64,000 nt of DNA from Phycisphaerae bacterium (GCA_041661865.1 JBAZTO010000016.1:2201-66200); one strand, 5' to 3'. Shown: positions 1 to 18,792, numbered from the stretch's first letter. Numbers and translations are program-made. Notes: a model not told the origin generated them from the sequence alone.

Positions 1-1067
1 CCCGCCGCGCGGTTCATCACCGTGCCCAGTTGCCCGGTCCGCTCGCCCGCGGCGATCATCTGGGTGATGGGCTGGGGCATCAGCGGGGCGTTCTGAAGCT
101 CGTCGGTCAGCGACGCGCCCTCCTCCACCTTGCCGGCCGTCTGCCGCCACATCAGGCTGAAGTAGTGATTGCCCGCGACCTCCGCCGTCAGGTTCAGCGC
201 GTCCAGCATGCTCACGCCGGTGTTAATCATCGTGGCCAGCGTCCGCAGCGAGCGGGCCATGCAGGCCTTGCGGATCATAGGCCCGATGACCGGAAGCTTC
301 AGGCGGATATCGTCCAGGGCCAACTGTCCGCGCGGGGTTTTTTGCAGGTAATAGATGCCGCAGCCAATGCCCGCCAGACCGACCACGACCACCGGCCAGT
401 AATTCACCAGGCCGTTGCTGGCGCCCAGCAGTATCCGCGTGGGCAGCGGCAGCACCGCGCCCTTGCCGGCGTAGATCTTCTCGAACCGGGGCAGCACGAA
501 CACCAGCAGCGCCGTGACCACCAGCACGCAGAAACCCAACATGCAGGCGGGATAGATCATGGCCCCCTTGACCCGCTTGCGAACGTCGCGGTCCTGTTCA
601 AGGTACTCGCTGACGCGCTGGAGCATGGTGCCCAGCATGCCCGAGGCCTCCGACGCCCGCACCATCGCGACGAACAGCTTGTTGAAGACCCTGGGGTGCT
701 TCTCCAACGCCCCCGAAAAGTCCGAGCCGCCCTTGACCTGCTCGCTGATGTCGCAGATCACATCCCGCATTCCGCCGGGCGAGCTCCCCTGCACGATGCT
801 GTCCAGCGAGTCCGACAGCGGCACGCCGGTATCGACCATCACGGCCAACTGGGAGCAAAAGAAGATCACGTCGTCCTTCTTGACCTTCATTTTGCCGCCG
901 GCGCAACGAGCCTTGGCCTTGATCTGCTGCCTCCCCTCGGGAGCCAGCGCCACGATGGTCTTGCCGTCGCGTCGGAGCAGGCGAGAGGCGTCGGCCAGGT
1001 CGTTGGCCGTCAGAACGCCGGCCACCGACTGCCCGGCGTTGTCGCGTGCCTGGAATTTGAATCGCAT
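1..1067 (-). CDS. pilC: Type IV pilus/T2SS inner-membrane platform protein PilC/GspF (3' end runs off the window)
   Basis: Translated by hand from ATG at 1067: MRFKFQARDNAGQSVAGVLTANDLADASRLLRRDGKTIV..., with later T2SSF-type segments (LATMVDTGVP, LVRASEASGML, IYPACM). Missing from the ORF track because it is open at the window edge. Directly follows pilT. Confidence 0.93.
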   Translation of the reverse strand, partial: MRFKFQARDNAGQSVAGVLTANDLADASRLLRRDGKTIVALAPEGRQQIKAKARCAGGKMKVKKDDVIFFCSQLAVMVDTGVPLSDSLDSIVQGSSPGGMRDVICDISEQVKGGSDFSGALEKHPRVFNKLFVAMVRASEASGMLGTMLQRVSEYLEQDRDVRKRVKGAMIYPACMLGFCVLVVTALLVFVLPRFEKIYAGKGAVLPLPTRILLGASNGLVNYWPVVVVGLAGIGCGIYYLQKTPRGQLALDDIRLKLPVIGPMIRKACMARSLRTLATMINTGVSMLDALNLTAEVAGNHYFSLMWRQTAGKVEEGASLTDELQNAPLMPQPITQMIAAGERTGQLGTVMNRAA

Positions 1068-1083
1068 AAGGAACCTTCTTTGT

Positions 1084-2142
1084 TCAGGCCACCAGCCGTG
1101 CCAGCTTCTCGGGGTTCTGCGACTTGGCCAGACCCTCGGCCAGGCTGACCTTGCCTGATGAGATCAGCTCGGCGATGGCCATGTCGATGCTCTGCATGCC
1201 CACGGACCTGCCCGTCTCGATCATGCCGGCGATCAGGTGCGTCTCGTTGTCGCGAATGGCCCGGCGGATGGCCGGGTTGGGGATCATAATCTCGACGGCC
1301 GGCACCAGGCCGCCGTCGCTCTCGTCGCGGAAAAGCCGCTGGCAGATCACGCCCTGGAGCGTGCAGGCCAGTTGCACGCGGACCTGGTTCTGCTGGTCGG
1401 CCGGGAAGACGTCGATGATGCGGTTGATCGTCTCGACGGTGTTGCAGGTGTGCAGCGAGGCCAGCACCAGGTGCCCGATCTCCGCCGCCGTCAGCGTGGC
1501 CGAGATGGTCTCCAGATCCCGCATCTCGCCGACCATGACCACGTCGGGGCGCTGGCGGACGATGTGCCGCAAGGCCGAGCCGAACGACTCGCTGTCCTGG
1601 CCGATCTGGCGCTGCTCGATGAGGCTCTTGCCGTGGACAAAGGTGAACTCCACCGGGTCTTCCATGGTGATGACGTGGTAGGCGTAGGTGGCATTGACGT
1701 GGCCGATGAGCGAGGCCAGCGTGGTGCTCTTGCCCGTCCCGGTCCCCCCGGCCACCAGGACCATGCCGTGCGGCAGGTCGGCCAGGTCGCGAACGCGCGG
1801 CGGCAGCTTGAGCTTGTCGAACTCCGGCACCGCGTGCGGTATGTACCTCATGGCCGCCGACAACGTCCCCCGCTGCCGGTGGAGGTTAACGCGCACGCGC
1901 CCCACGCCGGCACGCCCCACGGAGAAATCCACGTCCCCGGTGCGGTCGAGCCGCTCCCGCTGCTCGGCGCTGAGCTGCGGATGAAAGCACTCGGCAATGT
2001 CCGACTCGCCCAGCGGCTCGGTTCCGATCGGCTGCATCTGGCCGACCACCCACAAGGCCGGCGGCGCCCCGGTCACGAAAAGCATATCCGAGCCACGCCT
2101 TTGCACCATCGTTTCGAGTACTCTGTCGATTGTCCAGGACAC
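1084..2142 (-). CDS. pilT: Type IV pilus retraction ATPase PilT
   Basis: Walker A GGTGTGKSTT, TMEDPVEF, LRHIVRQRPDVVMVGEMRD, AAEIGHLVLASLHT and a C-terminal AIRRAIRD (AIRNLIRE-like) motif. Confidence 0.93.
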   Translation of the reverse strand: MSWTIDRVLETMVQRRGSDMLFVTGAPPALWVVGQMQPIGTEPLGESDIAECFHPQLSAEQRERLDRTGDVDFSVGRAGVGRVRVNLHRQRGTLSAAMRYIPHAVPEFDKLKLPPRVRDLADLPHGMVLVAGGTGTGKSTTLASLIGHVNATYAYHVITMEDPVEFTFVHGKSLIEQRQIGQDSESFGSALRHIVRQRPDVVMVGEMRDLETISATLTAAEIGHLVLASLHTCNTVETINRIIDVFPADQQNQVRVQLACTLQGVICQRLFRDESDGGLVPAVEIMIPNPAIRRAIRDNETHLIAGMIETGRSVGMQSIDMAIAELISSGKVSLAEGLAKSQNPEKLARLVA

Positions 2143-2169
2143 GTTATGGTCTCCCGTCGTGTTAAAACA

Positions 2170-3882
<1,713 letters not shown>

Positions 3883-3908: not shown

Positions 3909-4250
3909 CTACGACCGCACGGACTTGACGGCCTCCGCGGCGGTATCCAGAACCTCGAAGTATGTCAGCAAATGCGTGATCTCCAGGATTTTTCTGATGT
4001 TCTCATCGCAGTTGGTCAGCTTGACCTGCCCCATTCTCTGGGCCAACTGGTCCTGGAGGTCCATCAGGCACTCCAGGGACGCACTGTCGATAAACGGCAC
4101 CTGCTCCATATTCAGGATCAGGTCCACGATCCCATTGCCGGCCAACTGGTGATCCACCGCCTGCTTGAAGGCGACCAGACAATCTTCGGTCAGTTCACCC
4201 TTGATGTTGAGAATGACCGCGTGCCCATAACTTTCGGCGGCTACTTGCAT
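3909..4250 (-). CDS. STAS domain protein (anti-sigma-factor antagonist-like)
   Basis: 113 aa; IKGEL, DLILNMEQVPFIDSASL (STAS phosphoserine motif), VKLTNCDENIRKILEIT. Confidence 0.88.
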   Translation of the reverse strand: MQVAAESYGHAVILNIKGELTEDCLVAFKQAVDHQLAGNGIVDLILNMEQVPFIDSASLECLMDLQDQLAQRMGQVKLTNCDENIRKILEITHLLTYFEVLDTAAEAVKSVRS

Positions 4251-5896
4251 TCTTTGCTCCCTATCGCATCCAGGCCCAACGGGTTGGGCACCAGGATGCT
4301 CAGTTCATCCATAAAGGCGCTAAGGTCCATACTCAGCAGCTTGTCCACCAGCACCGCGTCCAGCTGGGTGCCGGCGTTACGCTTGATTTCGTCGGTGACG
4401 GCCGTCAGGGACATCGCCCGCCGGTAGGTTCGGTCGGAGGTCATGGCGTCGAAGCTGTCGGCCAGCCCGAGGATTCTGCCTTCCAGCGGCACCTGGTCGC
4501 CCTTGAGCCCGCGGGGATAGCCGCGCCCGTCGAGGCGTTCGTGATGCGTGACGATGCCCTCCACCACATCCTCCAACTGGCGGATGCCTCCGAGGATCCT
4601 GGCCCCGATGGCCGGGTGGCGCTTGACACTGTCGTACTCCTCGTCGGTCAGGCGGCCTGGCTTTCGCAGGACGCTCTCGGGCACGCCGATCTTGCCCACG
4701 TCGTGGAGCAGCCCGGCCAGGTAGATCCTCTGCGCGTGCTCGGCCGACAGGCCGCACGCCTCGGCCAGTCGCTTGGAAATGATCGCCACCCGCTGCGAAT
4801 GGCCGCAGGTGTAGGGATCCTTGGCGTCGATAGAGGCCGTCATCGCGTGCAAGACGCCCATCAACAGATCCTTCATGTCCGCGTAAAGCCGGCTGTACTC
4901 CAGAAAGACGGCCGTCTGCGTGCCCAGCGAACTGATGAGCTTGACATCGACGCTGTTGAAGTCGCCGCTGCGTTTGTTGAAGCCCATGAGCACGCCGATG
5001 GTCCGCTCGTCGCTGACCAGCGGGACAGCGATGAGGTTGCGGATATTGCCGGCGGCGCCGTAGGCGTGGCCGAAGTCGTTCTCGATGGCCGGATCCTGGT
5101 CCCGGATGAGCTTGCGGGCCACGAACTCGTCGGCCAGCAGCTTGATCTGCACGGCGTCGAGATTCATGTCCCCGGCGACCACGACGATCTCGTCCTCGGA
5201 GGGCCGCTTGGCATGAACCACCGCGGCGGCGGCGGAGATATTCATCACCTCCAGGATCTGCGAGCAGACGTTCTGGAGGAAATCTCGCGGCTGGCGGTTG
5301 ATGTTCATCGAGCCGGTAATGGCGTAGAGCAGGCCCAGTTCCTCGTAGGTGCTGGCCAGGTTGGCGCTGAGATTGCCCAACTCTTCCTGGCTGGTCTGGA
5401 CGGCCTGTTCGCGGGCGAGCATCCAGCCCAGGATTTTCAGGAAGTCGTCGGCCTGCGACAGCTCGTGCCGGCAGAAGGGCTGGGCCATGCCGAGGGCGGC
5501 CTGGCGGTCGATCTTGAGGCGGTCGCAGAGGCGGTTGAAGGCCTCGTCCTCCACCAACGAGCGAGGCAGGTAGCAGGCCACCGCCGCGCCCAACAGGCGT
5601 CGGCGTTGGTAGATGGGCACTCCAATCAGAGAGCAGCCGCAGGGAGAGACGCTTTGGGCCTGCCGGCCGTCATGCATCAGTTTGATGGCCAGGGACTCGG
5701 CGGCCTCGATGCAGCCGGCACGGCTTTCCTGGGCCATCTGGCAGAATTGACAAGGCGTCTGGAACTTGCCGGCCAGGCGTCCATTCTCGTCCCACACCGA
5801 GAGGTTCAGCCCGATCTCGCGCAACTGCGTCCGCAGTTGGGTCAACGCCCTGCCCATGGTCAGAAGCACACCGGGTTTTGCCGTGGTCGTCGTCAC
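4241..5896 (-). CDS. PocR-like sensor - GAF - HD-GYP c-di-GMP phosphodiesterase
   Basis: N-terminal CQFCQ...C...PCGCSLIGVPI (PocR-like); central LIAVPL...IGVLMGFNK...F (GAF); C-terminal DPYTCGHSQRV, HDVGK, HHERLDGRGYP, ADSFDAMTSDRTYR (intact HD-GYP). Confidence 0.9.
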   Translation of the reverse strand: MTTTTAKPGVLLTMGRALTQLRTQLREIGLNLSVWDENGRLAGKFQTPCQFCQMAQESRAGCIEAAESLAIKLMHDGRQAQSVSPCGCSLIGVPIYQRRRLLGAAVACYLPRSLVEDEAFNRLCDRLKIDRQAALGMAQPFCRHELSQADDFLKILGWMLAREQAVQTSQEELGNLSANLASTYEELGLLYAITGSMNINRQPRDFLQNVCSQILEVMNISAAAAVVHAKRPSEDEIVVVAGDMNLDAVQIKLLADEFVARKLIRDQDPAIENDFGHAYGAAGNIRNLIAVPLVSDERTIGVLMGFNKRSGDFNSVDVKLISSLGTQTAVFLEYSRLYADMKDLLMGVLHAMTASIDAKDPYTCGHSQRVAIISKRLAEACGLSAEHAQRIYLAGLLHDVGKIGVPESVLRKPGRLTDEEYDSVKRHPAIGARILGGIRQLEDVVEGIVTHHERLDGRGYPRGLKGDQVPLEGRILGLADSFDAMTSDRTYRRAMSLTAVTDEIKRNAGTQLDAVLVDKLLSMDLSAFMDELSILVPNPLGLDAIGSKECK

Positions 5897-5904: not shown

Positions 5905-6309
5905 CTAGTTCGTTTGGATGGACTCACTCTCGATCGTCTCGTGCTCGCCCAGCAACTCGTGGACCTTCTGGAGTACTTCGCGCGGCGCGAACGGTTTGGC
6001 CAGGATCACCGAGATGCCCGCCTGCTGAAGCTCCGCCGGCTCGATATCGAACTCCCGCGCCGTCAGCATCATGGCCGGGATGTGGCGCGTGTCCTCGTGG
6101 CGGCGAAGTTCCCCGCAGAACTTCAGGCCGCTCATGAAAGGCATCTGGCAGTCCGTGATCACCAGGTCGGGCCTTTCCATCAGGCACAAGTCCAACGCCT
6201 CCTCGCCGTCCACCGCCGTCACCACGTCGTAACCGGCGTTCTTGAGCTTAAGTGACAGCACGTGCAGGATATGCGCCTCGTCGTCGGCAATCAGTATCTT
6301 CTTACTCAT
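5905..6309 (-). CDS. Single-domain response regulator (receiver only)
   Basis: ILIADDE, DLVITDCQMP (phospho-Asp), MLTA, KPF; no output domain. Confidence 0.93.
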   Translation of the reverse strand: MSKKILIADDEAHILHVLSLKLKNAGYDVVTAVDGEEALDLCLMERPDLVITDCQMPFMSGLKFCGELRRHEDTRHIPAMMLTAREFDIEPAELQQAGISVILAKPFAPREVLQKVHELLGEHETIESESIQTN

Positions 6310-6391: not shown

Positions 6392-7834
6392 TCATGCCAG
6401 TAACGGCAGTTCAAAACTGAAAGTGCTTCCCTTGCCCACTTCGCTGGTGACGGCCAGCTTGCCCTCGTGCGCCGTCTCGATGATGTGTTTGACCAGCGTC
6501 AGGCCCAGCCCGGTGCCCTTGGCCAGCTTGTTGTTGGCCTTGACCCGGTAGAACTTGTCGAAGATGCGGGGCAGATCCTGGGCGGGGATGCCCGCGCCGG
6601 TATCGGTGACCTCGCACACGGCCATGCCCCGCCGCTCGTCGGCCGAGACGCTTACGGTGATCGTGCCGCCGTCGGGGGTGTACTTGATGGCGTTGGAGAT
6701 CAGGTTCAGCGCCGCCTGGTAGATCATGTCGCGGTCGGCCTCCACCAGGTAGTACACCGGCGCGAGGCGCTCGACGACCTTGAGGGTCTTGGCCCGGGCC
6801 TGCGGGGCGGCCACGTCCAGGACCTTCCTGACCACCTCGGTCAGCACGATCGGCTCGCGGACCATCTTCACCACGCCCGACTCGATGCGGGAGATATTCA
6901 GAATGTTCTCGATGAGCCGGTGGAGACGGTCGGTCTCGCTGGAGATGATCTCGTAGAACTCGCGCTGGGTCTTGTCGTCCTTGGCCTCGCCGTCCACCAG
7001 CATCTCCACATAGGCCTTGATGGAGGCCAGCGGCGTCTTGAGTTCGTGCGAGACGTTGGAGACGAAGTCGGACTTCATCTTGGCGATTTCTTTCTCGCGC
7101 GTCACGTCATGCAGCACGGCCACCACGCCCGAGACCTCCTCGTTGGTGTTGACCACGCAGCTCAGGGTGATGTTGAAGGTTCGCGGGGTGCCCTTCTGGT
7201 CAATACTGTGTTCGACGACGTTTCGCGTGTGGCTTCGGCCGTGGCTGCGCGTCTCGCGAACCAGCCGCACCAGCGTGCCGTCGGAGATGATCTGGTCGAT
7301 GTTCTTCCGCTGGTTGCCCTCGCACTTGAAGACCAGCAACTTCTCAGCCGCCTCGTTGGCCAGGATCAGTTCGTCAAAACGGTTGGTCACGATCACGCCG
7401 TCGGAAATGGAGAAGATGATCGCCTCGGTGTGGTTCTTCTCGGCGGCGGAAATGCGGGCCTGGATCTGGAGTTCGCGATTCTCGGCCTGGATTTCGTCCA
7501 TCCGGCTGCGCGTGAGCGAAAGAAGCTGGTTGAGCGGCCGGACGACCTGTCCCAACTCGCAGGCGTCCTCGGCCAGCACCAGGCCGTACTGCCCGGTGCG
7601 GCACATCGTCTCGATCTGCCGGGCGACGGAGGTCAGCTCGCGGTAGACCCGCCGCCAGAAGGCCAGCAGGATCAGGATCGTCAGCACGGCCACCAGCGCG
7701 TAGACCAGGCCGTTAAGCCCTTTGCCTCCGGCGAGATGGCCTTGCACAACCATCATGGTGGCGTAGTAAGCGGCGCTGGCGCCCAGCACGACGAGCGTGA
7801 TGCTTGCCAGCCCCAGTCTTTTGGCGATTGTCAC
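6392..7834 (-). CDS. Membrane PAS-domain sensor histidine kinase
   Basis: H-box SHELKTPL, N-box NLISNAIKY, DTGAGI, GTGLGL; PAS region (ISDGVIVTN...LANEAA); two N-terminal hydrophobic helices. Start moved from the track's 8065 to GTG at 7834, which has a GGAGG SD upstream. Confidence 0.92.
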   Translation of the reverse strand: MTIAKRLGLASITLVVLGASAAYYATMMVVQGHLAGGKGLNGLVYALVAVLTILILLAFWRRVYRELTSVARQIETMCRTGQYGLVLAEDACELGQVVRPLNQLLSLTRSRMDEIQAENRELQIQARISAAEKNHTEAIIFSISDGVIVTNRFDELILANEAAEKLLVFKCEGNQRKNIDQIISDGTLVRLVRETRSHGRSHTRNVVEHSIDQKGTPRTFNITLSCVVNTNEEVSGVVAVLHDVTREKEIAKMKSDFVSNVSHELKTPLASIKAYVEMLVDGEAKDDKTQREFYEIISSETDRLHRLIENILNISRIESGVVKMVREPIVLTEVVRKVLDVAAPQARAKTLKVVERLAPVYYLVEADRDMIYQAALNLISNAIKYTPDGGTITVSVSADERRGMAVCEVTDTGAGIPAQDLPRIFDKFYRVKANNKLAKGTGLGLTLVKHIIETAHEGKLAVTSEVGKGSTFSFELPLLA

Positions 7835-7923
7835 GTTGGCAGCCTCCACAAAAAGGGTCCAGCCGGCCCCTGGCGGTGGGAACGAGTCTTGCCCGCCAGA
7901 GGACCGGAAGGCCCGCAGTACAC

Positions 7924-9184: not shown

Positions 9185-11269
9185 CTACTCCTTGGCCGGC
9201 TGGGTCGTCAGTGCCTGGGTCGAGACCGCGTTCGGGGCCGGAACCGGGGCCTCTGCCGGGGCCGGGGGCATATGCATCTTGACCTTCCGGTCGGCGCCGC
9301 TGCTGGCGGCGGGCGGCATGATCGGGTCCATCGGCCGCGGCTCGATGTCGAAGGCTTCGCGGACTTCCGGCGCGACGTCCCTGGCATGCAGGGGCTTGTC
9401 GGGAGGAATGATCCGCTGGACGGGCAGGCCCATTTCCTGCATCATCATCCGCTGCACGATGTAGGCGGCGGTGGAATCCTGGTAGTAGTCCGACCAGAAC
9501 GCCTTGCCGGTGATCTGTTCTTTCAGCGCGATGGCCTCGGTGAAGCGAGGTTCCAGGGACAGGGCCATATCGACATTCCACAGGGCCTTGTCTTCCTGCC
9601 CCTCGTTGAGGGCCTGGCGCGCCCAGCCCAGATGCGTTTGGGCCAGACGGTCGCGACCCCACCATTGCACGCCTTTACGCTGGCCGATACGGTAGCGGTT
9701 CACGTCGTCCTTCAGTTGCTCGCTGGTGGCCTCGTCGGCCGCCTGGCGAATAATGTGCGGCGTCAGCAGGATGATCAACTCCTTGCGGCGAGTCTTGTCC
9801 GCGGTCCGGCGGAAGGCCGCCCCGATGACCGGCAGGTTGCCCAGCATCGGGATCTGCGAGCGGTTGTTGTCGGTCTGCTCGCGGAACAGGCCGCCCAACA
9901 CGATGGTGTGGCCGTCGCGGACGAAGATGTTGGTCGTCAGCTCCGTGCTCTTCTTGCTGGGAATGGTATTGCCCGATACCTCCGTGACGCTTCCGGTGCT
10001 GTCCTCGGGATGGATCTCCAGACGCAGGTATCCGTCCTTGGCGATGTACGGCCGCACGATCAGGCGAGTGCCGGTTTGTAGGAACGCCACCGACTGGGTG
10101 ACCTGGCCTTCCGTGGTCGTCGTCGTGAGATAACCCAGTTCGTCACCGACCAGGACTTCGCCGCGTTGCTTGTTGACGATCAGCAGCTTGGGGTTGGCCA
10201 GCACCGTCGTGTCGACCACGCTCTCCAACGCGCTGACGAACGCCGAGACGTTGTTGGTGACAATGCCGAACTTCATGCCGCCCGGCACCGTCGGAAAATC
10301 AGTCCGGAAATTACTGACGGGCGCCTTGCTCATGTTGGCCGTGGACAGCCCGGTATTGGTGATGGTGCCGATGGGATCGCTGGTCGAACCCAGCGTCTCA
10401 AAGTCCACGCCGCACAACGTGGTTAAGTTCACGCCCAGGGCATTGTCTTCCGTCAGTTCGGCGCTGAGGATGGTCGCCTCCAGGAGTACCTGTTCGGGCC
10501 TGACATCCAGCCTGTTGAGGATCTGCTCGACCTGCTTGAGGTTGTCCTCGTAGTCCGTCACGATCAGCACGTCGCCGGAGGCCGTGCTGTTGCCCCCGGT
10601 ATCGGTGTTGCTGGGTCCGATGCCCGTCCCCGCGTCGGGAGTGGTGGAAACCAGGGCCTCCTTCGACAACACCGGGGCGATCAGATCCTTGGTGTCCTTG
10701 GCGTTGATGTAGGACAGGTGGAAGGTGCGGGTGGACACCTTCTGGGCAGCCCTCTCGGCCTCTTCCTTTTGCTTGGGCGTGTAGACGTAGATGAAGCCGT
10801 CCTTCTCCAGGTAGACAAAGCCCGTCGAGCGGAGCACCGCGTCCAGGGCGTCCTTGAAGCTCACGCCGTACAGGTCGGCCGTCACGGTGCCGGCGACGTC
10901 CCGGGTGGCCACGATGTTCTTCTTGCCCTGGGTGCTGAGCAACTGGAGCACGCCGCGAAGGTCGGCGCCTTGGACGTGGATCTCGAACGTGCCGGGCTTG
11001 GTCACGCGGACAGGATCCCCCTCGGCGTTGGGGTCGAGGGAGTTGGCGGCCTGCCGATTCGGCGTGGCGGCCTGGGCCGCCGGCGGAGTGGTTCCAGACA
11101 CTTCGGCGGACTTGGGCGCCACCAGCCCGCTGAGAGTCTTTGACGGAGAGGACGCGGACGGAGAGGACGCGGATTTATCTTCCGCCGCGGCCACCCGGGG
11201 GAGGGTCAACACAATAAGGGCGGCCAATCCAGTCCCCGCCCATAACACCTTTGAGCTCCGCGATATCAT
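9185..11269 (-). CDS. pilQ: Secretin (PilQ/MshL/GspD family) with C-terminal extension
   Basis: Signal peptide; STN/N0-like region (DLRGVLQLLS...KNIVAT...VTADL); N3 region; secretin core (QVLLEATIL, LANPKLLIVN...GE, DGHTIVLGGLF, IPMLGNLPVIGAAFR, ELIILLTPHII). Confidence 0.92.
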   Translation of the reverse strand: MISRSSKVLWAGTGLAALIVLTLPRVAAAEDKSASSPSASSPSKTLSGLVAPKSAEVSGTTPPAAQAATPNRQAANSLDPNAEGDPVRVTKPGTFEIHVQGADLRGVLQLLSTQGKKNIVATRDVAGTVTADLYGVSFKDALDAVLRSTGFVYLEKDGFIYVYTPKQKEEAERAAQKVSTRTFHLSYINAKDTKDLIAPVLSKEALVSTTPDAGTGIGPSNTDTGGNSTASGDVLIVTDYEDNLKQVEQILNRLDVRPEQVLLEATILSAELTEDNALGVNLTTLCGVDFETLGSTSDPIGTITNTGLSTANMSKAPVSNFRTDFPTVPGGMKFGIVTNNVSAFVSALESVVDTTVLANPKLLIVNKQRGEVLVGDELGYLTTTTTEGQVTQSVAFLQTGTRLIVRPYIAKDGYLRLEIHPEDSTGSVTEVSGNTIPSKKSTELTTNIFVRDGHTIVLGGLFREQTDNNRSQIPMLGNLPVIGAAFRRTADKTRRKELIILLTPHIIRQAADEATSEQLKDDVNRYRIGQRKGVQWWGRDRLAQTHLGWARQALNEGQEDKALWNVDMALSLEPRFTEAIALKEQITGKAFWSDYYQDSTAAYIVQRMMMQEMGLPVQRIIPPDKPLHARDVAPEVREAFDIEPRPMDPIMPPAASSGADRKVKMHMPPAPAEAPVPAPNAVSTQALTTQPAKE

Positions 11270-11356: not shown

Positions 11357-11917
11357 CTAACTTCCTTTCATCTCCAAAACGACTTTGACGTCGGCCTTTT
11401 CCAGCGTCACCGACCCGCTGGTGATCTCCATGACCTGGAACCCGCCGATCTGACTTCCGATTTTCAGCACTTTTCCGTTGATGATCGCGGTCGGGCTGGC
11501 CGAGAGGATGGTGCTTTGCAGGGTCATGCCCCGAACCTGGTCATCGGCCGCCTTGGCCGCCTCGTCGTGGTTGTCCGGTTGAACGCTGGCCGCGACCCCC
11601 GAGGGAAACAGCCCGGCCGGCGCCGAGAAGATGTCCCGCTGGATCGTCGTGTCAATCTCCCGCAGGTACTTGTCGCGGCTGGGATCGACGGCAGACTCGT
11701 CGGCGGAGTTCGTCAAGGCCGGCTCGGTCGGGGCAGGGCTCGCCGCCACAACCAGTGGCGCCGCCGCGGCCGAGGAGGGAACACCCTTGAAGATCAGCTT
11801 CCCGAATACCACCAGCCCAACGCAGAGCAGGACGCCCAGGGTCAGGGCCTTCTTCTTGTCCCGCTTCAGCTCGTCGAGCAGTTGGTTCTTGATTCTTGTG
11901 ATGCTGTCGTTTGCCAT
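11357..11917 (-). CDS. MshK/PilP/GspC-like pilus alignment protein
   Basis: One N-terminal TM helix, an RDIF motif and a C-terminal beta domain LQSTIL...AIINGKVLKIGSQIGGFQVMEI...VTL; lies between pilO and the secretin. Confidence 0.6.
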   Translation of the reverse strand: MANDSITRIKNQLLDELKRDKKKALTLGVLLCVGLVVFGKLIFKGVPSSAAAAPLVVAASPAPTEPALTNSADESAVDPSRDKYLREIDTTIQRDIFSAPAGLFPSGVAASVQPDNHDEAAKAADDQVRGMTLQSTILSASPTAIINGKVLKIGSQIGGFQVMEITSGSVTLEKADVKVVLEMKGS

Positions 11918-11933: not shown

Positions 11934-12464
11934 TTAGCTCTTGGTGAAGTAAATGTTCATGAAAAGCTCGAATTCCATCGGCTTGTTGTCCTCGCGAGGC
12001 GTCAGGATCATCAGCCGCTGCACCCGCGTCAGACGCTGCATTCGCTCGATGTTTTTCAGGAAGCTCGCCAAGGCCAGGTAAGAGCCCTTGAACTTCATCT
12101 GGATGGGCATCGTGTTGAACAGATCCTCGCTCGTGGGGCTGCCGGTCTCCATCAGGCCGTCGGACAAGGCCGACTCCCGCTGGATGCCCGAGATCTCCTG
12201 GAGGAATCCGCCCAGTTCCTTGCTCTTGGGAAGCTTGCGGTCAAAGTCCTTGTAGCGGTTCTTGAGGCTCTGAACCCTGCGCATCAGGTCGGGAACCACG
12301 GCGGCCTTGTTCCGATCGGCATCCAGCGCCAGACGCTTGGTGGCGATCTCGGTCCGCAGTCCCTCCAACTTGGCGTTCTGCGGGCGATACACCGCCAGCA
12401 GCGAGACGACCGCGACGCTGCCGGCCAGGCCCAGCACGATCCAGTTTTCTTTCGTCAACTTCAT
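11934..12464 (-). CDS. pilO: Type IV pilus alignment protein PilO
   Basis: N-terminal TM helix, coiled coil, KLP...L..FL..I, then PIQMKFKGSYLALASFLKNIERMQRL; follows pilN. Start set at MKLTKEN. Confidence 0.85.
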   Translation of the reverse strand: MKLTKENWIVLGLAGSVAVVSLLAVYRPQNAKLEGLRTEIATKRLALDADRNKAAVVPDLMRRVQSLKNRYKDFDRKLPKSKELGGFLQEISGIQRESALSDGLMETGSPTSEDLFNTMPIQMKFKGSYLALASFLKNIERMQRLTRVQRLMILTPREDNKPMEFELFMNIYFTKS

Positions 12465-12478: not shown

Positions 12479-13090
12479 TTAGCGAACCACGTAGCAACTG
12501 GCCTGGAACTCCCGGACGGTCCGGCCGCGGTACTCGACGTTGCGGGAGTAACCCATGCTCACGTCCTCAAACAGCTTGCAGGCCGACATCTGGGCGATAA
12601 AGTTGGCCAGGTCCACGTCCGTCGGGGCCAGACCCGTGAAGGTCAGTTGCACCCGCTTGGTGATTCTCTCGCCGCCCAGGCCCGCCGAGGCGGACCTATC
12701 CGCCGGCTTGACCGGCACGGGCACGGACTTGGCCTCCAGGTTCAGGTTGGTCAGGAAAATCGTTTCGGGCAGCAGCCGTTCCATCTCAGCCAGCACTTCC
12801 AGGGCGTTCACGCGGCTGCCCAACTGGTCGTCGATCCGCTTCTTGATCATCAGGTCGGCCTGCTGACGCTCCAGATCCTGGCGGAAGGACATCTGCTTGT
12901 GGATAGCGGCCGACTGGTCTTCCAGGGCGGCCATCTCGGCGTGGGCCTGGGCGATCTGTCCCTGCCGCAGACCGGCCAGCGCCGCCACGCCCAGCGTCGC
13001 CAGACCCACCAGGATCAACTGGCGAATCATGCTCCTGCGGCTGGCCTGTTGGCGCCGAATGCGTTCAGGCAGAAAGTTTATGTTCAGCAT
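12479..13090 (-). CDS. pilN: Type IV pilus alignment protein PilN
   Basis: Starts MLNINFLP (the PilM-binding INLLP motif), then TM helix, coiled coil and LPETIFLTNL; between pilM and pilO. Confidence 0.87.
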   Translation of the reverse strand: MLNINFLPERIRRQQASRRSMIRQLILVGLATLGVAALAGLRQGQIAQAHAEMAALEDQSAAIHKQMSFRQDLERQQADLMIKKRIDDQLGSRVNALEVLAEMERLLPETIFLTNLNLEAKSVPVPVKPADRSASAGLGGERITKRVQLTFTGLAPTDVDLANFIAQMSACKLFEDVSMGYSRNVEYRGRTVREFQASCYVVR

Positions 13091-14204
13091 GTTGAGCCTC
13101 TGAAGGATTGCGGATCGCGCGAAGCGACATTCCGGCGCACAGCGCCCACTCGGGGAAGCAACCACGCTCGTGCGCCTCGCTTTGCAGGGCCGTGGTGTCC
13201 ACGCCCTGGAGCGGCTGGCCCAGGACGCACTCGACATCGAGATGCTCGCCCAGGATCTTGGAGATCGACGGGTCGTAGGCCTCCCCGCCGCACAGGACGA
13301 TTTGCGAGGGCCTCAGCCCGCGGAAAGTGACCGAACAGTAACGCAGGCACAGGGCTATCTCCGAGGCCAGCGACTCCACCTCGGCCCGAATGGCATCGTG
13401 CATGGTCCAGTCCAGGTTCCCGTCGACGCCGGCCTGGCCCTTGATCATCGCGTCGGATCGCTGGCGGATCATCCGCTGGCGGAGCTGGCAGGCCTCGTCG
13501 AAGCCCAGGCCTAACTGCTTGGAGACCGCCTCGACCATGTGCCTGCCGCCCAGCTCGATGCTCTTGATGAAAACCACCTGCTCGCCGCGCCCCACCACCA
13601 CGCGCGTGCCGCTGTAACCGACATCCACCACCACGCTGATGCCCGGGTCGTCGCTCTTGCGAGGGAGGGAGCGACCCAGAACGCGGTAGACGACAATCGG
13701 GGCCGCCTCGATGAACACGGGCGTCAGTTTCATCTCCGCCAGCAGGGCCGTGTGCGCCTCGATGGTCTTGCCCTCCACCGCCAGCAGGATGATCTCCTGG
13801 CAGGTGTCGTTGCCGGAGCGGACCTCGCCGGCGCTGAGGAAGTTGAACTGGTCGTCGGCCACTTCAAAGCCCAGGCGTTCCTGGGCCTCCCACTTCAGGG
13901 CGTTCCGCATTTCCGCCTCGGGCATGGCCGGCATGCGGAGACTCTTGATGGCCAGCTCCGAGCAGGACAAGGCCGTCACGACCTTCCTGCCCTCGAAGCC
14001 GCCCTGGCGCCTCAATTCCGCCACGCCCGCGACGACCTGCTGACGCCATTGCGCCGGGTCGGCCGTCTTGGCCAGCGGCTTGTAGCCCCAGGCCGCCACG
14101 CGCGGCCCCTGCTTGGTCGAGTCCAACTGGAGCATCTTGATGCTGTCGGCGCCGATGTCCAGTGCGATCGGCTGTCGCTTGTTCTTTGCCCATAAACGTG
14201 TCAT
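13065..14204 (-). CDS. pilM: Type IV pilus actin-like protein PilM
   Basis: IALDIGADSIKMLQL, VVVDVGYSGT, IELGGRHM, IVLCGGEA (actin-like ATPase fold motifs). Confidence 0.92.
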   Translation of the reverse strand: MTRLWAKNKRQPIALDIGADSIKMLQLDSTKQGPRVAAWGYKPLAKTADPAQWRQQVVAGVAELRRQGGFEGRKVVTALSCSELAIKSLRMPAMPEAEMRNALKWEAQERLGFEVADDQFNFLSAGEVRSGNDTCQEIILLAVEGKTIEAHTALLAEMKLTPVFIEAAPIVVYRVLGRSLPRKSDDPGISVVVDVGYSGTRVVVGRGEQVVFIKSIELGGRHMVEAVSKQLGLGFDEACQLRQRMIRQRSDAMIKGQAGVDGNLDWTMHDAIRAEVESLASEIALCLRYCSVTFRGLRPSQIVLCGGEAYDPSISKILGEHLDVECVLGQPLQGVDTTALQSEAHERGCFPEWALCAGMSLRAIRNPSEAQHAEHKLSA

Positions 14205-14226: not shown

Positions 14227-14754
14227 TTACGGTTTCGCCTGCACCGACACTCGGCCGGTCGCCGAGGCCACGTCGATGTAGTAGACGTTTGCCCTGGCCT
14301 GCAACACGATGTTGTGCGTCGCCGGACTCAGCGGCGCCACCGTGCCCGGCGCTCCCAGCACGTCGAACGTCACGGCGCTTCCACCGTTGAAGTTCACCGA
14401 GTAAACATCCACGTTTTCGGTGCCGGGGGTGGTCCTGAAGCCGACCACGTAGTCTGTCTTCGTGATCGGGTTTTTCAGCAGGCCACTTGCGTTAGATAAT
14501 TGGTAACTCTCGGCGCCGGTGTTGAATGTCACCGTCACCGGAACCTGGGTGGTGATGGCGGTGTCCTGGGCGTATTGCAGGTCGGCCGCGAGCATCCTTG
14601 CCGCGCCCATCACCTGCAAATCACTGGCATTGGACAACTTGGGAACAATCACGGCCGCGGCGATGCTCAGAATCACCAGCATCACGATCACTTCGGTGAG
14701 GGTGTAGCCTCGCCGGACGGTCCGATAATTACGGATTGCTGGCCTTGGAGTCAT
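14227..14754 (-). CDS. Minor pilin, FimU/FimT/GspH-like
   Basis: Class III signal RRG|YTLTEVIVMLVILSIAAAVIVP; AARMLAADLQYAQ..AI; C-terminal GRV. Start moved to 14754. Confidence 0.85.
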   Translation of the reverse strand: MTPRPAIRNYRTVRRGYTLTEVIVMLVILSIAAAVIVPKLSNASDLQVMGAARMLAADLQYAQDTAITTQVPVTVTFNTGAESYQLSNASGLLKNPITKTDYVVGFRTTPGTENVDVYSVNFNGGSAVTFDVLGAPGTVAPLSPATHNIVLQARANVYYIDVASATGRVSVQAKP

Positions 14755-15136: not shown

Positions 15137-15150
15137 ATTTCACTCCGGGT

Positions 15151-16266
15151 CTAGTAGTTCCATCGAACAATCTGAATCTTGGATACCGCGCTGCCGGCGT
15201 CGTGCAGGGTCTGGATGTCGGCGGGGGCCAAAACTTTGTCGAAAATAGCCACTTCGTCCATGCTGCCCTTGAAGAACTGGCTCTCGCCCCACTGGGAGCC
15301 GATGTAGAGGTCGGCCTTCCTGCCGCCGGTGGGTTTCTTTTTCCCCTCGCTATAGTTCCAGACGCCCACCTGGACTCCCTCCAGGTAGACCCGGATGGTG
15401 CGGCTGCTGATCTCCCGCGTGAGCGTCAGGTTGTGCCAGACCCCCGCGCTGATGTTCAGCCCGGTGAAGGTATTGGCATGGTCGCGTCCCTTTTTGTATT
15501 CGTCGAGGTATTCCAGATCCCCGCTTGGGTTGATTACCATCTCGTAAGTGGTGTTATCCCTTTTCCTCTCAGTGTCCTCGCTGCTGGTCACCAGCGTGTA
15601 CTTGTCGCTGGGCAGGCTGTCCATCTTGAACCACATGGACACCGTCATGTCGCCGCGGAGTTGGAGATCCCGAGTCGCGTCCCGGGTCAGGTAGTCGTTG
15701 GCGCCGTCAAGGGTCATGGCCTTGTCCGAGTCGCTCGGCAATGCCCCGGCAGCGCCCATCGTGACGGAGTTCTTGACAGTCAGGTCGTAGTCGTCCGACG
15801 TGGCATCGTCTGCCACATTCCCGGAAATCTCCCCCAGCCGCCAGTAGCCTACCGGAGATTGGGACATGACGGTATTCTGGTAGGCGGGCGGCGCGTAGAC
15901 GAGCATGGAAGGTTTCTGCATGCCCTTGCCAAACGTGGCTTTGCCCGTCAGTACGTAGTAGCCCGGGTTATTGGCATCCGCAGTCCCCCAGAAGTAGTAG
16001 GTGTCGGCGGTGCCGTCGGCGTGAAAAGGCCCCAGCGGGCGGGCTTCGCTGGTGCCGGCGAAGGCGTTGCAGTCCTTCTGCAACTGGTAGAGGGCGTGCT
16101 GGAGGGCCGACTCGCCCAGGTATCGGGCTCTCGCCGCCTGGAGCATGTTGTGACTGGCGGTCATTTTGATGGTGGCGCTGGAGACGTAACTGCCGGCCAG
16201 CACCACGGCCAGTGCCACGGCCAGCAGCACCAGCAACATCGCCATGCCTGTGGATTGTCTTTTCAT
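15151..16266 (-). CDS. PilX/GspK-like minor pilin fused to a LamG (concanavalin A-like lectin) domain
   Basis: MKRQSTG|MAMLLVLLAVALAVV (no Glu5, as in PilX); ARARYLGESALQHA; then PVGYWRL.E, LDGANDY, MTVSMWFK, WHNLTLT, VYLEG, LYIG, FFKGSMDEVAIFDKVL (LamG_3 signature). Confidence 0.85.
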   Translation of the reverse strand: MKRQSTGMAMLLVLLAVALAVVLAGSYVSSATIKMTASHNMLQAARARYLGESALQHALYQLQKDCNAFAGTSEARPLGPFHADGTADTYYFWGTADANNPGYYVLTGKATFGKGMQKPSMLVYAPPAYQNTVMSQSPVGYWRLGEISGNVADDATSDDYDLTVKNSVTMGAAGALPSDSDKAMTLDGANDYLTRDATRDLQLRGDMTVSMWFKMDSLPSDKYTLVTSSEDTERKRDNTTYEMVINPSGDLEYLDEYKKGRDHANTFTGLNISAGVWHNLTLTREISSRTIRVYLEGVQVGVWNYSEGKKKPTGGRKADLYIGSQWGESQFFKGSMDEVAIFDKVLAPADIQTLHDAGSAVSKIQIVRWNY

Positions 16267-16341
16267 CGGGATCGTTACCTCTAGTCCCTCATCGGCGCAA
16301 TCGCGCCCCCAGATAATTAGCGATTTCGGCTTGGGAGGCCT

Positions 16342-16466
16342 CACAGGCGTCTCGCCTGTGTCCGGGGGTAGCACAGGCTTTCCAGCCTGTGCGTGACACC
16401 GCTTGGAAAAGCTGTGCCACCTGTTGGGACGGCCTCTTAATGCACAGGCGAGACGCCTGTGCTACC
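16342..16466. repeat. Cluster of REP-like palindromes (CACAGGC..GCCTGTG family)
   Basis: CACAGGCGTCTCGCCTGTG (16342-16360), GGTAGCACAGGCTTTCCAGCCTGTG (16367-16391), a degenerate partner at 16401-16421 and GCACAGGCGAGACGCCTGTGCTACC (16442-16466). Confidence 0.85.
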
Positions 16467-16483
16467 ATCGCGGCCTCTGGAGG

Positions 16484-17119
16484 TTAGCCGCCTATCAGGA
16501 CGTATTGTCCGCCGGAAATGCCCACCTTGCTCGTCAAACCGGCGCGGGTGGAAGCGGCGCTGCGAAGCGTGATCTTTTGCGTGCCCACGCCGACGGTCAT
16601 GTTGACCTTCACCAGCGTCGCCAGGGGCGGAGTGGGCGTGGCGCTGAAAATGCAACTGCTGACGTCGGTGGTCAGGAGCTGGGCGGGGGCGTAAGTGCTG
16701 TTGAGAATCTGCGGCACGATGCTCGTCGCGTTGGTCAGCGACGACAGCGGGACGGCCGTATTCAGGGCGGCCTGGATATTGGCGGGGAAACTGCATCGGG
16801 AGAACTTGATCTGGCCGGAGGCAAACGATATCACGCCGATCTCGTCCATGTTGACAAGGTTGTTGCCGTTGGTGTCGTCCAGCCAGAGTACGACCGTGTT
16901 GGCGCTGCAATAGGTCGCCAGTTTGGAACTCTGCACGAGGCTCTGGATCTTGAGCATGGCGCTTCGGCCGGTCTGGATGGACTGGTAGTAGTCCTCGGTG
17001 CTGGCGTGGGCCTTGGAGATGGCCATGGTCACCCCGGCCACCGAGAGGCTGGTGATGGACATAATCAAGATCGAGAGCGTCAGTTCCAACGCGGTGAATC
17101 CGGTCCTGCGTCGCGTCAT
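16484..17119 (-). CDS. Minor pilin, PilW/GspJ-like
   Basis: MTRRRTG|FTALELTLSILIMSI class III signal with Glu5. Confidence 0.8.
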   Translation of the reverse strand: MTRRRTGFTALELTLSILIMSITSLSVAGVTMAISKAHASTEDYYQSIQTGRSAMLKIQSLVQSSKLATYCSANTVVLWLDDTNGNNLVNMDEIGVISFASGQIKFSRCSFPANIQAALNTAVPLSSLTNATSIVPQILNSTYAPAQLLTTDVSSCIFSATPTPPLATLVKVNMTVGVGTQKITLRSAASTRAGLTSKVGISGGQYVLIGG

Positions 17120-17134
17120 GTAAAACTCCTTCAA

Positions 17135-17638
17135 CTAGAGCGTCAGGCAGATCAGGCGGCTGAGCGTGATCAAGGTCGTGCCGCGGTGCTTGACCGTGAC
17201 GGTCACGCGGTAGAAGTCCGCCGGCTTGCTGGTGTCCTGCCCGTCCAACCAGGCGTAGGCGACGGTGGTTTCGCGTGACAGGCCCGAGGACAAGGGGCTC
17301 TTGATGATCGCGCCGCCGGCGTCGGCGATCTGCCCGGCCGCCTCGGTCACAGTCTTGTAGTCGTTGACGTCGTCGTAGCGGCTGCGCGTGACCTCGCCCG
17401 CGTCGGGGCCGAAAGCCGTTCCGCCCTGGGGGTCTTTCACCGGCTTGGACAGGACTTCTTCCATCATTTCCTGGGCCAGCCCTGTGGCCAGGGTCATCCG
17501 GCCGTCGGTCTCCTCGTTGCGTGCCCCGGCGGCGAACGGCATGGTGATGGCCGTGATGGCCACCGTCAGCACCACCGCGGCCATGAGGGACTCGACGAGC
17601 GTAAAAGCCTTCGTGCCAGTCTGTTGTAGTCGGTCCAT
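17135..17638 (-). CDS. Minor pilin, PilV/GspI/MshD-like
   Basis: TKA|FTLVESLMAAVVL; ATGLAQEMMEEVLSK; YDDVNDY; C-terminal VTVTV. Confidence 0.82.
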   Translation of the reverse strand: MDRLQQTGTKAFTLVESLMAAVVLTVAITAITMPFAAGARNEETDGRMTLATGLAQEMMEEVLSKPVKDPQGGTAFGPDAGEVTRSRYDDVNDYKTVTEAAGQIADAGGAIIKSPLSSGLSRETTVAYAWLDGQDTSKPADFYRVTVTVKHRGTTLITLSRLICLTL

Positions 17639-17651
17639 ATCCCCTTCTCCG

Positions 17652-18155
17652 TCAATAACTGAAGAAAGCGACTCCCGCGTTGTCGCTGCCCTGCGAATCA
17701 GCTTTCAGCCTGTCGATGGAGGGTTGGTAAACCCAGCCGTGCGAATCGTCCGCGGCTCCGGGCAGGCTGCCACCGTCGGGAATGATCTCAACGGTCTTCT
17801 TGCCGTTGACGGGGTTGGCGGGGATCTCTCGCAGGTAGGGACCGTAGGGATAGCCGGCCGTTCCCGCCGCGGCGCACTCCCCGTTCCCCTTGGAGGCGCT
17901 GATCATTTGCAGGACCAGTGCCGCCTCGGTCGGCGCGACCGCCGGGTCGCAGCCGGGATACCCTGCCGCAACGTTGTGCTGGCCCTTAAAAACAGCCAAC
18001 TGCGTGCGGAAGGTCCGAAGGTCGTCGGCCAGCATGCTGGCCCTGGCGGTAGCCGCCGCATTGGACACCTTAGGCAGCACAATCGCCGCCAGAATGCCCA
18101 GGATGAGGACCACGATCAGGATTTCGACCAGCGTAAATGCCATCTGTTTCTTCAT
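17652..18155 (-). CDS. Major pilin paralog 2 (GspG/PilA-like)
   Basis: QMA|FTLVEILIVVLILGILAAIVLP; paralogous to 18301-18792 along its length. Confidence 0.88.
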   Translation of the reverse strand: MKKQMAFTLVEILIVVLILGILAAIVLPKVSNAAATARASMLADDLRTFRTQLAVFKGQHNVAAGYPGCDPAVAPTEAALVLQMISASKGNGECAAAGTAGYPYGPYLREIPANPVNGKKTVEIIPDGGSLPGAADDSHGWVYQPSIDRLKADSQGSDNAGVAFFSY

Positions 18156-18300
18156 AGTTGGCTCACTCGCTTCATGTCCTCCAGACCCGATTAGGGGCCA
18201 GGAGAACCTTTACAGAAACGACTCCAGGCCGGGGCCGACTATCTGTCAGCCCCGGCCGGGAAGCCGCAACTCATGCCATGTGGGTCTCAAGCCACATGGG

Positions 18301-18792
18301 TTACAGCCCGCTGAAGGCAACACCCGCGGAGTTGTTGCCCGTATTGTCCGCGGACAGGCGACCCGAGTTGGGGTCGAAGTGCCAGGCGTCGGTGCCCGCA
18401 CCGGCCGCAGCGCCAGCCACGCGAACGGTCGTTCTGCCGCTGATCGCGTTGGTCGGGAAGCTCTGCATGTACGGGCCAAAAGCGCCCGCGGTTCCGTTGG
18501 CAACGATATTGCCGTACTGGTCGGTCTGGCTGGTCAACTTGACGGCGAAGTTGGCGTCAGCCACCCAAGTCGCGCCGCTGTCAGCCGACTTGACATTGGG
18601 ATAGTGGTCGTTGTGCTGGATGTTGTACAGCTCCAACTGGCTGCGCAGCGTCTGAAGGTCGCTGGTCAGTGAAGACTCGCGGGCGTCCTGGGACGCCGAG
18701 CTGAACTGCGGGATCACGATCGCGGCCAAGATGCCCAGAATGATCACAACGATCAGAATTTCAACCAAAGTAAAACCTTTATTGCTAGTCAT
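18301..18792 (-). CDS. Major pilin paralog 1 (GspG/PilA-like)
   Basis: MTSNKG|FTLVEILIVVIILGILAAIVIPQF; GGAGG SD upstream of ATG 18792; first gene of the cluster. Confidence 0.9.
   Translation of the reverse strand: MTSNKGFTLVEILIVVIILGILAAIVIPQFSSASQDARESSLTSDLQTLRSQLELYNIQHNDHYPNVKSADSGATWVADANFAVKLTSQTDQYGNIVANGTAGAFGPYMQSFPTNAISGRTTVRVAGAAAGAGTDAWHFDPNSGRLSADNTGNNSAGVAFSGL

Follow-up and report, generated by a model that had tools for sequence, protein, structure and literature searches.

Type IVa pili (T4aP) are polyphyletic, and the pili of the mannose-sensitive haemagglutinin type (MSH or MSHA) are single-locus systems without a prepilin peptidase, for which mshA, mshE, mshG and mshL as well as mshM are mandatory in the MacSyFinder model and whose reported occurrence is so far limited to Gammaproteobacteria, Epsilonproteobacteria and Chrysiogenetes (PMC6668835). 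Among planctomycetes, type IV pilus proteins were abundant in the metaproteome of a Phycisphaera bin (PMC7029141), and a comparative study refers to a member of the Gemmatales that adheres to chitin by means of pili (PMC11131199). The supplementary files of Denise et al. 2019, searched for T4aP or type II secretion system (T2SS) calls in Phycisphaera or planctomycetes, held only a Pirellula Tad entry and tree legends. Phycisphaerae are abundant, mostly uncultured polysaccharide degraders whose surface machinery is without experimental study. Here, we describe a pilus locus on a 64,000-nt stretch of DNA from a Phycisphaerae bacterium (GCA_041661865.1, JBAZTO010000016.1:2201-66200); this whole stretch is called the window, and positions are counted from its first letter. 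A preliminary description had read its first part as a single-locus, MSHA-like and retractile pilus cluster of an architecture not known to have been characterised in planctomycetes. As to the last point, our literature search indeed gave no study of type IV pilus function in Phycisphaerae.

Judged from its sequence, the locus is likely to encode a complete type IVa-like pilus machine of a Phycisphaerae-specific lineage, with an embedded signalling cassette that would act on the motor. We call it type IVa-like for its unfused PilM and PilN, for its PilT and because, among solved structures, PilB and PilC come closest to those of Myxococcus and Geobacter. Its distinctive features are an invariant cassette, a GspB-like protein at the position of PilP, a K-type pilin tipped with a lectin module, an extension of the secretin and an optional PilT.

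The locus and its conservation

The window contains, on the minus strand of positions 1-18819, 20 consecutive and closely packed open reading frames (ORFs), which were identified by Pfam and NCBIfam profile searches and have the place and order announced beforehand (Table 1). Intergenic gaps range from -26 to +87 nt, apart from 145 nt between pilin 1 and pilin 2 and 217 nt at 16267-16483, and a scan of the coding strand for intrinsic terminators gave no convincing one inside the cluster. The tight packing together with the lack of an internal terminator suggests one operon, or a few closely linked ones. Upstream of pilin 1 neither a sigma-70 consensus nor a sigma-54 promoter nor an Rfam riboswitch was found; beyond this non-coding stretch, a divergent lipoprotein gene begins at 19443 (+). 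At the other end, the PilC ORF is cut by the start of the window. In relatives PilC is the last gene of the cluster, and the genes 3' of it vary between genomes (dnaJ, tuf and others).

The secretin has 774 relatives at E <= 1e-20, the best of them 65% identical. Since every named one is from Phycisphaerae or Planctomycetota, the supposed origin from a Phycisphaerae planctomycete is supported; the source is an uncultured groundwater member of this class. A scan with one genome per species gave 266 loci, and the 20 window proteins were compared by tblastn with the best 80 of these, all from Phycisphaerae-type metagenome-assembled genomes (MAGs), Tepidisphaerales included. The order shared by these 80 loci is pilin, pilin, minor pilins, LamG pilin, small membrane protein, GspH-like pilin, PilM-PilN-PilO, P186 (the 186-aa protein at the PilP position), secretin, TPR lipoprotein, kinase, REC, HD-GYP, STAS, PilB, (PilT) and PilC. 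Because this order recurs in 80 independent Phycisphaerae loci, the arrangement is far beyond chance, and synteny among relatives, which had been expected, is very strong. Every locus that spans secretin to PilB (42/42) has the TPR gene together with the full set of four signalling genes. The single-locus layout with its own embedded regulation, named in the preliminary description, holds.

PilT is the variable part. In 11 of the 37 loci spanning both PilB and PilC, the two genes are separated by PilT, complete or as a fragment; in the remaining 26, PilC follows PilB directly across gaps of 25-224 nt. Loci with PilT occur in scattered places of the PilB tree, the deepest branch included, and the pairwise identities of PilB and PilT show a moderate correlation (Spearman coefficient 0.49), a pattern compatible with, though no proof of, an ancestral PilT that was lost repeatedly. 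Since PilT is missing from the cluster in 26/37 loci, retraction is a trait of this genome and not core to the family; only to that extent does the proposed retractile nature hold. The remark that pilT is normally encoded elsewhere is true of Vibrio and Pseudomonas, whereas in Myxococcus, Geobacter and cyanobacteria the genes pilB, pilT and pilC usually lie side by side.

Some Phycisphaerae have a second, paralogous cluster without the signalling cassette (loci L057, L060, L061 and also L065), in which secretin, TPR protein, pilin and PilM are found along with PilB (~49% identical), PilT and PilC. Its PilB is the sister of the main family in 97/100 bootstraps.

Table 1 Features of the pilus locus, from the upstream region to the start of the window
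Feature	Position	Strand	Basis or remark
Non-coding region, presumed promoter of the operon	18793..19442	-	ORF map; ~620 nt
Pilin 1, major-type	18301..18792	-	N_methyl 31.6 bits; leader MTSNKG|FTLVE; alternative ATG at 18819
Pilin 2, major-type paralogue	17652..18155	-	39% identical to pilin 1; MKKQMA|FTLVE, Ala at -1
Minor pilin, PilV/GspI-like	17135..17638	-	Class III signal KA|FTLVE; weak matches to PilV and HpsB models
Minor pilin, PilW/GspJ-like position	16484..17119	-	Class III signal G|FTALE
Palindromic insertion, like a repetitive extragenic palindrome or miniature inverted-repeat element (REP/MITE-like)	16330..16470		RNA fold; inside the 217-nt gap
Modular minor pilin, GspK/PilX-like with LamG	15151..16266	-	Laminin_G_3 90 bits; GspK model residues 42-105
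Small single-pass membrane protein, 135 aa	14729..15136	-	Conserved; no family match
Minor pilin, GspH/FimU-like	14227..14754	-	Pfam GspH 30 bits; G|YTLTE
PilM, cytoplasmic actin-like alignment protein	13065..14204	-	PilM_2 88 bits; TIGR01175 102 bits, under cutoff 133
PilN	12479..13090	-	Pfam PilN 32.6 bits
PilO	11934..12464	-	Pfam PilO 63.8 bits vs T2SSM_b 19.3
P186, bitopic inner-membrane protein at PilP/MshK position	11357..11917	-	C-terminal GspB/HR-like beta domain
Secretin	9185..11269	-	N0/STN, one Secretin_N domain, secretin core, C-terminal extension
TPR lipoprotein, lipobox LAGC	7924..9110	-	395 aa after G restored past 8066
Membrane-anchored PAS-HisKA-HATPase kinase	6392..7849	-	Two transmembrane helices with very short loop
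REC-only (CheY-like) response regulator	5905..6309	-	Phospho-acceptor Asp and Lys conserved
PocR-like/GAF/HD-GYP phosphodiesterase-type protein	4241..5896	-	HD_5 143 bits
STAS protein, anti-sigma-antagonist type	3909..4250	-	Asp-Ser site conserved
PilB-type extension ATPase with MshEN/GSPII N-terminal domain	2170..3882	-	T2SSE 446 bits, MshEN 58 bits, Walker A, tetracysteine motif
PilT retraction ATPase	1084..2142	-	TIGR01420 397.5 bits, above cutoff 319
PilC/GspF-family platform protein	1..1067 (ORF 3-1067)	-	T2SSF x2; 355 of ~404 aa

Pilus or secretion machine

The closest solved structures lean towards a T4aP. Over its full length, PilB matches Geobacter PilB with 518 and Myxococcus PilB with 506 bits; with the core only, the scores are 430 for Myxococcus, 429 for Geobacter, 419.5 for Vibrio cholerae EpsE and 380 for Thermus PilF. 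Within its first 150 residues, the protein resembles the MshEN/GSPII domains known from PilF, PilB and MshE (44.7 bits for the MshE N-domain, 5HTL), in keeping with the MshEN-type PilB named in the preliminary description; the N-domain of XpsE gave no significant match. For PilC the closest solved protein is Myxococcus PilC (198 bits), and the secretin found PilQ structures with 118.5, 114 and 110 bits, Pseudomonas PilQ at the top, against 104 and 103 bits for GspD.

A neighbour-joining tree of the ATPase core was calculated from 365 columns with 100 bootstraps on bipartitions. Its references were PDB alignments together with annotated sequences from E. coli, Comamonas, Cupriavidus, Deinococcus and Acetoanaerobium, none of them MSH sequences; a plasmid collection searched for further ATPase references held GspE of T2SS and a few type IV pilus ATPases, but no MSHA cluster. 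The Phycisphaerae ATPases form one clade in 100/100 replicates, as does the GspE core (100/100), and the two were never joined (0/100), so that the firm placement among T2SS GspE proteins that would have spoken against a pilus was not seen. Phycisphaerae grouped with Myxococcus/Geobacter PilB in 49/100 replicates. The ATPase apparently makes up a separate lineage that leans weakly towards T4aP of the deltaproteobacterial type. A type IVb or a Tad pilus was rejected, BfpD giving only 109 bits and RcpA only 64 bits.

PilM, PilN and PilO are encoded by three separate genes, and PilO scores far above the GspM model. P186 is bitopic and not a lipoprotein, unlike PilP with its HR domain. Its cytoplasmic N-terminal stretch is followed by one transmembrane helix, a linker of low complexity and, at the C-terminus, a conserved domain of ~50 residues. 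Its sequence matches are weak (T2SSB with E = 0.007, CdsD_C with 24.8 bits, GspC with 25 bits over a part only); one homologue bears a precomputed T2SSB match. A search of PDB sequences with the family profile gave nothing relevant and no PilP. The homologue search returned four sequences and thus a shallow alignment for AlphaFold2, whose model is confident only in the C-terminal five-stranded domain (predicted local distance difference test 81-91). The top Foldseek match of this domain is the periplasmic domain of Dickeya GspB (4WFW; probability 1.00, root-mean-square deviation 2.0 A over 48 columns, E = 0.15). The preliminary description had called the protein MshK-like; "GspB/HR-like" is the name that can be defended for it.

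Past the core, the secretin carries a C-terminal extension of ~185 aa (residues ~510-694; window 9185-9740) that has no Pfam match and is strongly conserved in 40 homologues, with W487, W515, W543 and a TPR-like helix pair. The extension may be a docking site for the TPR lipoprotein encoded next to it, which is a candidate pilotin of the PilF/PilW/Tgl/MshN kind and probably helps the secretin to assemble.

Six proteins have a class III signal: the two major-type pilins and four minor pilins (H/I/J/K-like), whose assignment to individual families is based on weak profile matches. Counting the window and related loci, Ala replaces Gly at -1 in 17/57 sequences of pilin 1, 30/57 of pilin 2 and 26/63 of the GspH-like pilin; across the family, 30-55% of the pilin signals have this Ala. 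The PilV/GspI-like minor pilin is kept in 43/50 loci and that at the PilW/GspJ position in 38/50. The GspG model matches pilin 1 with 54 bits, under its cutoff and over residues 14-76 only, and a profile of both paralogues found geopilin (70 bits), MshA (47.1), PulG (47.0) and Streptococcus sanguinis PilE1 (46) in the PDB, with matches confined to the N-terminal helix (~60 residues) and none in the globular part. The earlier label of GspG-like major pilins therefore suits the helix, where geopilin, MshA and PulG are matched alike, and does not extend to the globular part.

The K-like pilin (371 aa) has a GspK-matching N-terminus without Glu5, a conserved RARYLAESG motif and, in its C-terminal two thirds, a lectin-type Laminin_G_3 domain. 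The single match of this pilin among PDB sequences is a weak one to an S-layer domain protein. It is a modular pilin, with an N-terminal pilin module joined to a domain that is not pilus-specific, and pilins with PF13385 are among the commonest architectures of this kind (PMC8179133). From its domains, this protein is likely a tip adhesin.

Altogether, the sequences show an alignment complex of the inner membrane (PilM, PilN, PilO and P186), a PilC platform and an outer-membrane secretin. Prepilins would be cut by a peptidase encoded elsewhere; the H/I/J/K-like minor pilins would, by analogy, prime assembly and sit at the tip, and PilB would polymerise pilin through the secretin. The K-like tip pilin may present its LamG module to glycans or particles, and PilT, where present, would pull the fibre back.

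Several results weigh against this interpretation. ATPase, secretin and platform score about equally on T4aP and T2SS models, all under the curated cutoffs: on NCBIfam models, the ATPase gives 604.2 bits for PilB (cutoff 676) and 602.3 for GspE, the secretin 216.2 for PilQ (cutoff 284), 215.5 for GspD and 127.3 for MshL (TIGR02519, cutoff 250), and the platform protein 299.5 for GspF against 262 for the Myxococcus PilC model. The deep nodes of the ATPase tree are without support, and the structural match of P186 is weak (E 0.15) and derived from a four-sequence alignment. In agreement with the preliminary description, a Pfam scan of the 64-kb window revealed neither a prepilin peptidase nor PilY1 among 52 called genes; a prepilin peptidase was not found 3' of PilC in relatives either. 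With regard to retraction, most related loci lack PilT.

These ambiguities are taken up by the idea of a non-canonical T2SS, in which the short GspG-like pilins would build a periplasmic pseudopilus that pushes folded exoproteins, for example the numerous glycoside hydrolases of such degraders of polysaccharides, through the secretin, with PilT as an occasional add-on. It would account for the platform's better fit to GspF, for the ties between the GspE and PilB and between the GspD and PilQ models, for minor pilins that match GspH and GspK, for a P186 domain resembling GspB, for the missing PilT in 26/37 related clusters and for a neighbourhood rich in genes of carbohydrate-active enzymes (CAZymes); moreover, a bona fide GspE from Comamonas aligns with the window PilB from residue 17. 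We nevertheless regard a secretion system as unlikely: PilM and PilN are separate and not fused as in GspL, a GspC with PDZ or coiled-coil domain is missing, PilT is present in the window, the ATPase never joined GspE, its N-terminus is of the MshEN type and not significantly like that of XpsE, the lectin on the tip pilin suggests exposure outside the cell, and no curated T2SS cutoff was reached. Membership in MSH, or a sister lineage of it, would mean a single-locus adhesive pilus with a cyclic di-GMP (c-di-GMP)-dependent MshE-type ATPase and mostly motorless retraction. The layout traits of that system (PMC6668835) are indeed found here, namely a single locus without prepilin peptidase, in which the secretin is preceded by a small protein and followed by a TPR gene, and an MshEN domain; most relatives have no PilT, and MshA is among the best pilin matches. 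This part of the MSHA-like label stands. Membership itself is not supported, and we hold it to be quite improbable: MshM, mandatory in the MSH model, is absent among the 20 genes, PilM and PilN are separate, the secretin reaches 127 bits with MshL, below the ~216 bits of PilQ and GspD, MshEN also occurs on PilB of Myxococcus, Geobacter and Thermus, and the MshA match covers the N-terminal helix only and ties with PulG. A type IVa-like machine remains our preferred reading.

A plasmid of Comamonas odontotermitis (NZ_CP083452.1, 301539-312623; locus L081) carries a canonical-looking T2SS with gspE-F-G-H-I-J-K, an L-like gene, gspM and gspD. Its GspE aligns to the window PilB from residue 17 with 45.6% identity and so has an MshEN-like N-terminus; hence MshEN alone cannot separate pili from T2SS.

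The signalling cassette and the extension motor

Between the TPR gene and PilB lie a kinase, a REC protein, an HD-GYP protein and a STAS protein. Orthologues retain the H-box of the kinase, Asp and Lys of REC, the motifs HD...HDxGK and HHExxDGxGYP and the Asp-Ser site of STAS; phosphodiesterase activity is predicted from the HD-GYP motifs, which are conserved in 48 orthologues. A single REC-HD-GYP model (NF053512) is matched by the REC protein at its positions 1-118 and by the HD-GYP protein at 169-353, and the two genes look like a split RpfG-type enzyme to which PocR and GAF sensors were added. DNA-binding domains are absent from all four proteins; the output of the cassette is therefore probably post-translational, and it would be exerted on the motor.

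The most likely route would start with phosphotransfer from the kinase to the REC protein. Phosphorylated REC, together with sensing by GAF and PocR, would set the phosphodiesterase activity of the HD-GYP protein and thus the local c-di-GMP that PilB would sense through its MshEN-type N-terminus; a further input, of the partner-switch kind, may come from the STAS protein. c-di-GMP control of PilB-type motors is well established in other systems (PMC11656802), and PilB passes the NCBIfam model for the MshE-related c-di-GMP motif (NF053729, 46.5 bits, cutoff 38). The MshEN consensus consists of two 24-residue motifs, (R/K/L)LGxxhhxxGhhxxxxLxxxLxxQ (PMC5013675; extended in PMC11731258). Here, the hydrophobic Leu and Gly core is kept in both motifs, and motif II retains L-L-G and the Leu/Ile core. 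That the HD-GYP protein tunes the c-di-GMP read by PilB is the most economical reading of these genes, to which we give about an even chance. Because the second MshEN motif is degenerate, such control is plausible only.

Indeed, several points speak against this part of the model. Motif I departs from the consensus only at position 1, with Gln in place of the expected Arg, Lys or Leu; in motif II, four positions are off consensus (7, 10, 12 and 24, the last being that of the terminal Gln). Thermus GSPII-A, whose motif II is similarly degenerate, does not bind c-di-GMP (PMC11731258). Moreover, the 20 genes of the cluster include no diguanylate cyclase, no PilZ protein and no STAS kinase or phosphatase. 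The pilus could therefore be real and its cassette work otherwise than by c-di-GMP on PilB: REC or STAS would bind the motor or PilM directly, in the manner of PilG/PilH or of a partner switch, which is the chief alternative, or the HD-GYP protein would be a scaffold or hydrolyse another cyclic dinucleotide. The off-consensus motifs, the precedent of a non-binding domain in Thermus, the lack of a cyclase or PilZ protein and a conserved STAS Asp-Ser site without a cognate kinase nearby would all be understandable then; the passed NF053729 model, the Leu/Gly core in both motifs and the strictly conserved catalytic residues of HD-GYP speak against it. We take this as a tentative but serious possibility, somewhat short of probable.

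Further features and genomic surroundings

The protein encoded at 14729-15136, between the K-like and the H-like pilin genes, was detected in 31/50 related loci. It has a transmembrane helix, VDxYTRxCLTxIAVLLTVLIVGLWA, and a C-terminal helix, TNxKLDELIxLLKSGxxKVQV, both conserved; a prepilin motif or a match to a Pfam or NCBIfam family was not found. The insertion at 16330-16470 is a nested palindrome between two minor-pilin genes (fold -84 kcal/mol, z = -6.7); copies related to it lie at 20618-20672 and at 63981-63995. The core motif of the palindrome, GGCACAGGCTTTC...GGAAAGCCTGTGCC, occurs 8 times at <=3 mismatches, compared with 2.5 expected. Public contigs include a form of the insertion minus 69 nt (16366-16434), and relatives have short gaps only at this site. 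Downstream of the pilin genes, the palindrome may either attenuate the transcript or lend it stability. Two 151-nt contigs from a freshwater metatranscriptome (X11) align with 96-98% identity to 18199-18524 and cover part and the 3' end of pilin 1 as well as the spacer between pilin 1 and pilin 2, which hints weakly at transcription of the pilin genes in a close relative, with read-through past the stop of pilin 1.

The overlap of the TPR and kinase ORFs in the window is due to a 1-nt deletion, an indel artefact or variant, which puts the 3' end of the TPR gene out of frame and gives the kinase ORF a falsely long N-terminus. In two groundwater metagenomes, whose contigs contain 99% and 60% of the window's words, all contigs have an extra G after 8066 (depth 14/14 and 4.1/4.1). 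With this G restored, the TPR protein extends to 395 aa with a proper TPR C-terminus and a stop at 7924, and the most likely kinase start is GTG 7849, as in orthologues.

Outside the cluster, 32 genes were called. Positions 19443-64000 encode an AraC regulator, GH4, fucosidase-like, rhamnosidase-like, pectate-lyase, beta-helix and FG-GAP proteins, CstA and KDPG aldolase, and also planctomycete DUF1570 and DUF1573 proteins, an H+-pyrophosphatase and ArgRS; a tRNA-Asn lies at 20863-20936 and a tRNA-Val at 31359-31432, the latter overlapping the mechanical start of ORF 28841-31417. These surroundings suit an organism that degrades glycans. An island of mobile or plasmid-borne nature was rejected in view of the even GC content, the housekeeping and CAZyme flanks and the class-wide synteny.

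Comparison with described systems

Taken further, the cluster could be a class-wide, hitherto undefined lineage of the type IV filament superfamily that branches between T4aP and the MSH/T2SS radiation, with a mixed set of PilM/N/O, optional PilT and GspB/F/K-like parts, in which an in-operon phosphorelay with HD-GYP gates the motor for glycan capture or secretion by planctomycetes that degrade polysaccharides; this is speculative and, in our view, rather doubtful. In any case, a conserved single-locus pilus with a built-in sensor cassette is a compact case for post-translational switching of a pilus motor, and the presence or absence of PilT at one fixed site is a natural experiment on motor-dependent versus motor-independent retraction. 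The lectin-tipped pilin is a concrete candidate for glycan binding by planctomycetes. The cluster may also serve as a marker locus for annotating Phycisphaerae MAGs, in which names now waver between PilQ, GspD and 'hypothetical'.

With the T4aP of Myxococcus xanthus and Geobacter the locus shares the order pilM-N-O-(P-position)-secretin, the pilB-pilT-pilC adjacency, the MshEN-type N-terminus of PilB and a TPR lipoprotein as helper, for which the window protein has a Tgl-like match. Two-component genes lie inside the pil region in these organisms, too. However, the pilins are alike only in the N-terminal helix, the window secretin has no AMIN domains and carries the ~185-aa extension, the PilP position is taken by a bitopic GspB-like protein instead of a lipoprotein, and PilD and PilY1 are not at the locus. 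The regulators are REC-only, HD-GYP and STAS proteins and not PilS/PilR of the NtrC type, and PilT is optional in the family.

The MSHA system of V. cholerae (mshI-Q) is likewise a single locus that lacks a prepilin peptidase, has its secretin between a small protein and a TPR gene, and encodes an MshEN ATPase, usually with no retraction ATPase at the locus, as in most relatives of the window cluster. The window differs in lacking MshM, in its unfused PilM and PilN, in the presence of PilT, in a secretin below the MshL cutoff and in a degenerate second c-di-GMP motif. Common to T2SS and the window are the GspF-like platform, the GspH/GspK-like minor pilins, the GspB-like domain, short pilins and equal profile scores of ATPase and secretin. 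In contrast to T2SS, the window has PilM, PilN, PilO and PilT and no GspC, GspL or GspM (a partial 25-bit GspC match on P186 and a 19-bit GspM match on PilO aside), its ATPase stands outside the well-supported GspE clade, and its secretin has one N domain between N0 and core where GspD has N1-N3.

The fusion of an N-terminal pilin module to a concanavalin/LamG-type domain is known from PilC of S. sanguinis and other modular lectin pilins, but the carrier in the window is a tip subunit of the GspK/PilX type without Glu5, in a diderm with a secretin. As in MshE, Myxococcus PilB, the Xanthomonas PdeR-FimX-PilZ-PilB system and RpfG, an MshEN-type domain on the motor and a phosphorelay-linked phosphodiesterase are found close together. 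In the window, however, the receptor motifs are off consensus, REC and HD-GYP are encoded by two neighbouring genes, PocR and GAF sensors are present in addition, and the cassette lies inside the pilus operon, where it is invariant across the class.

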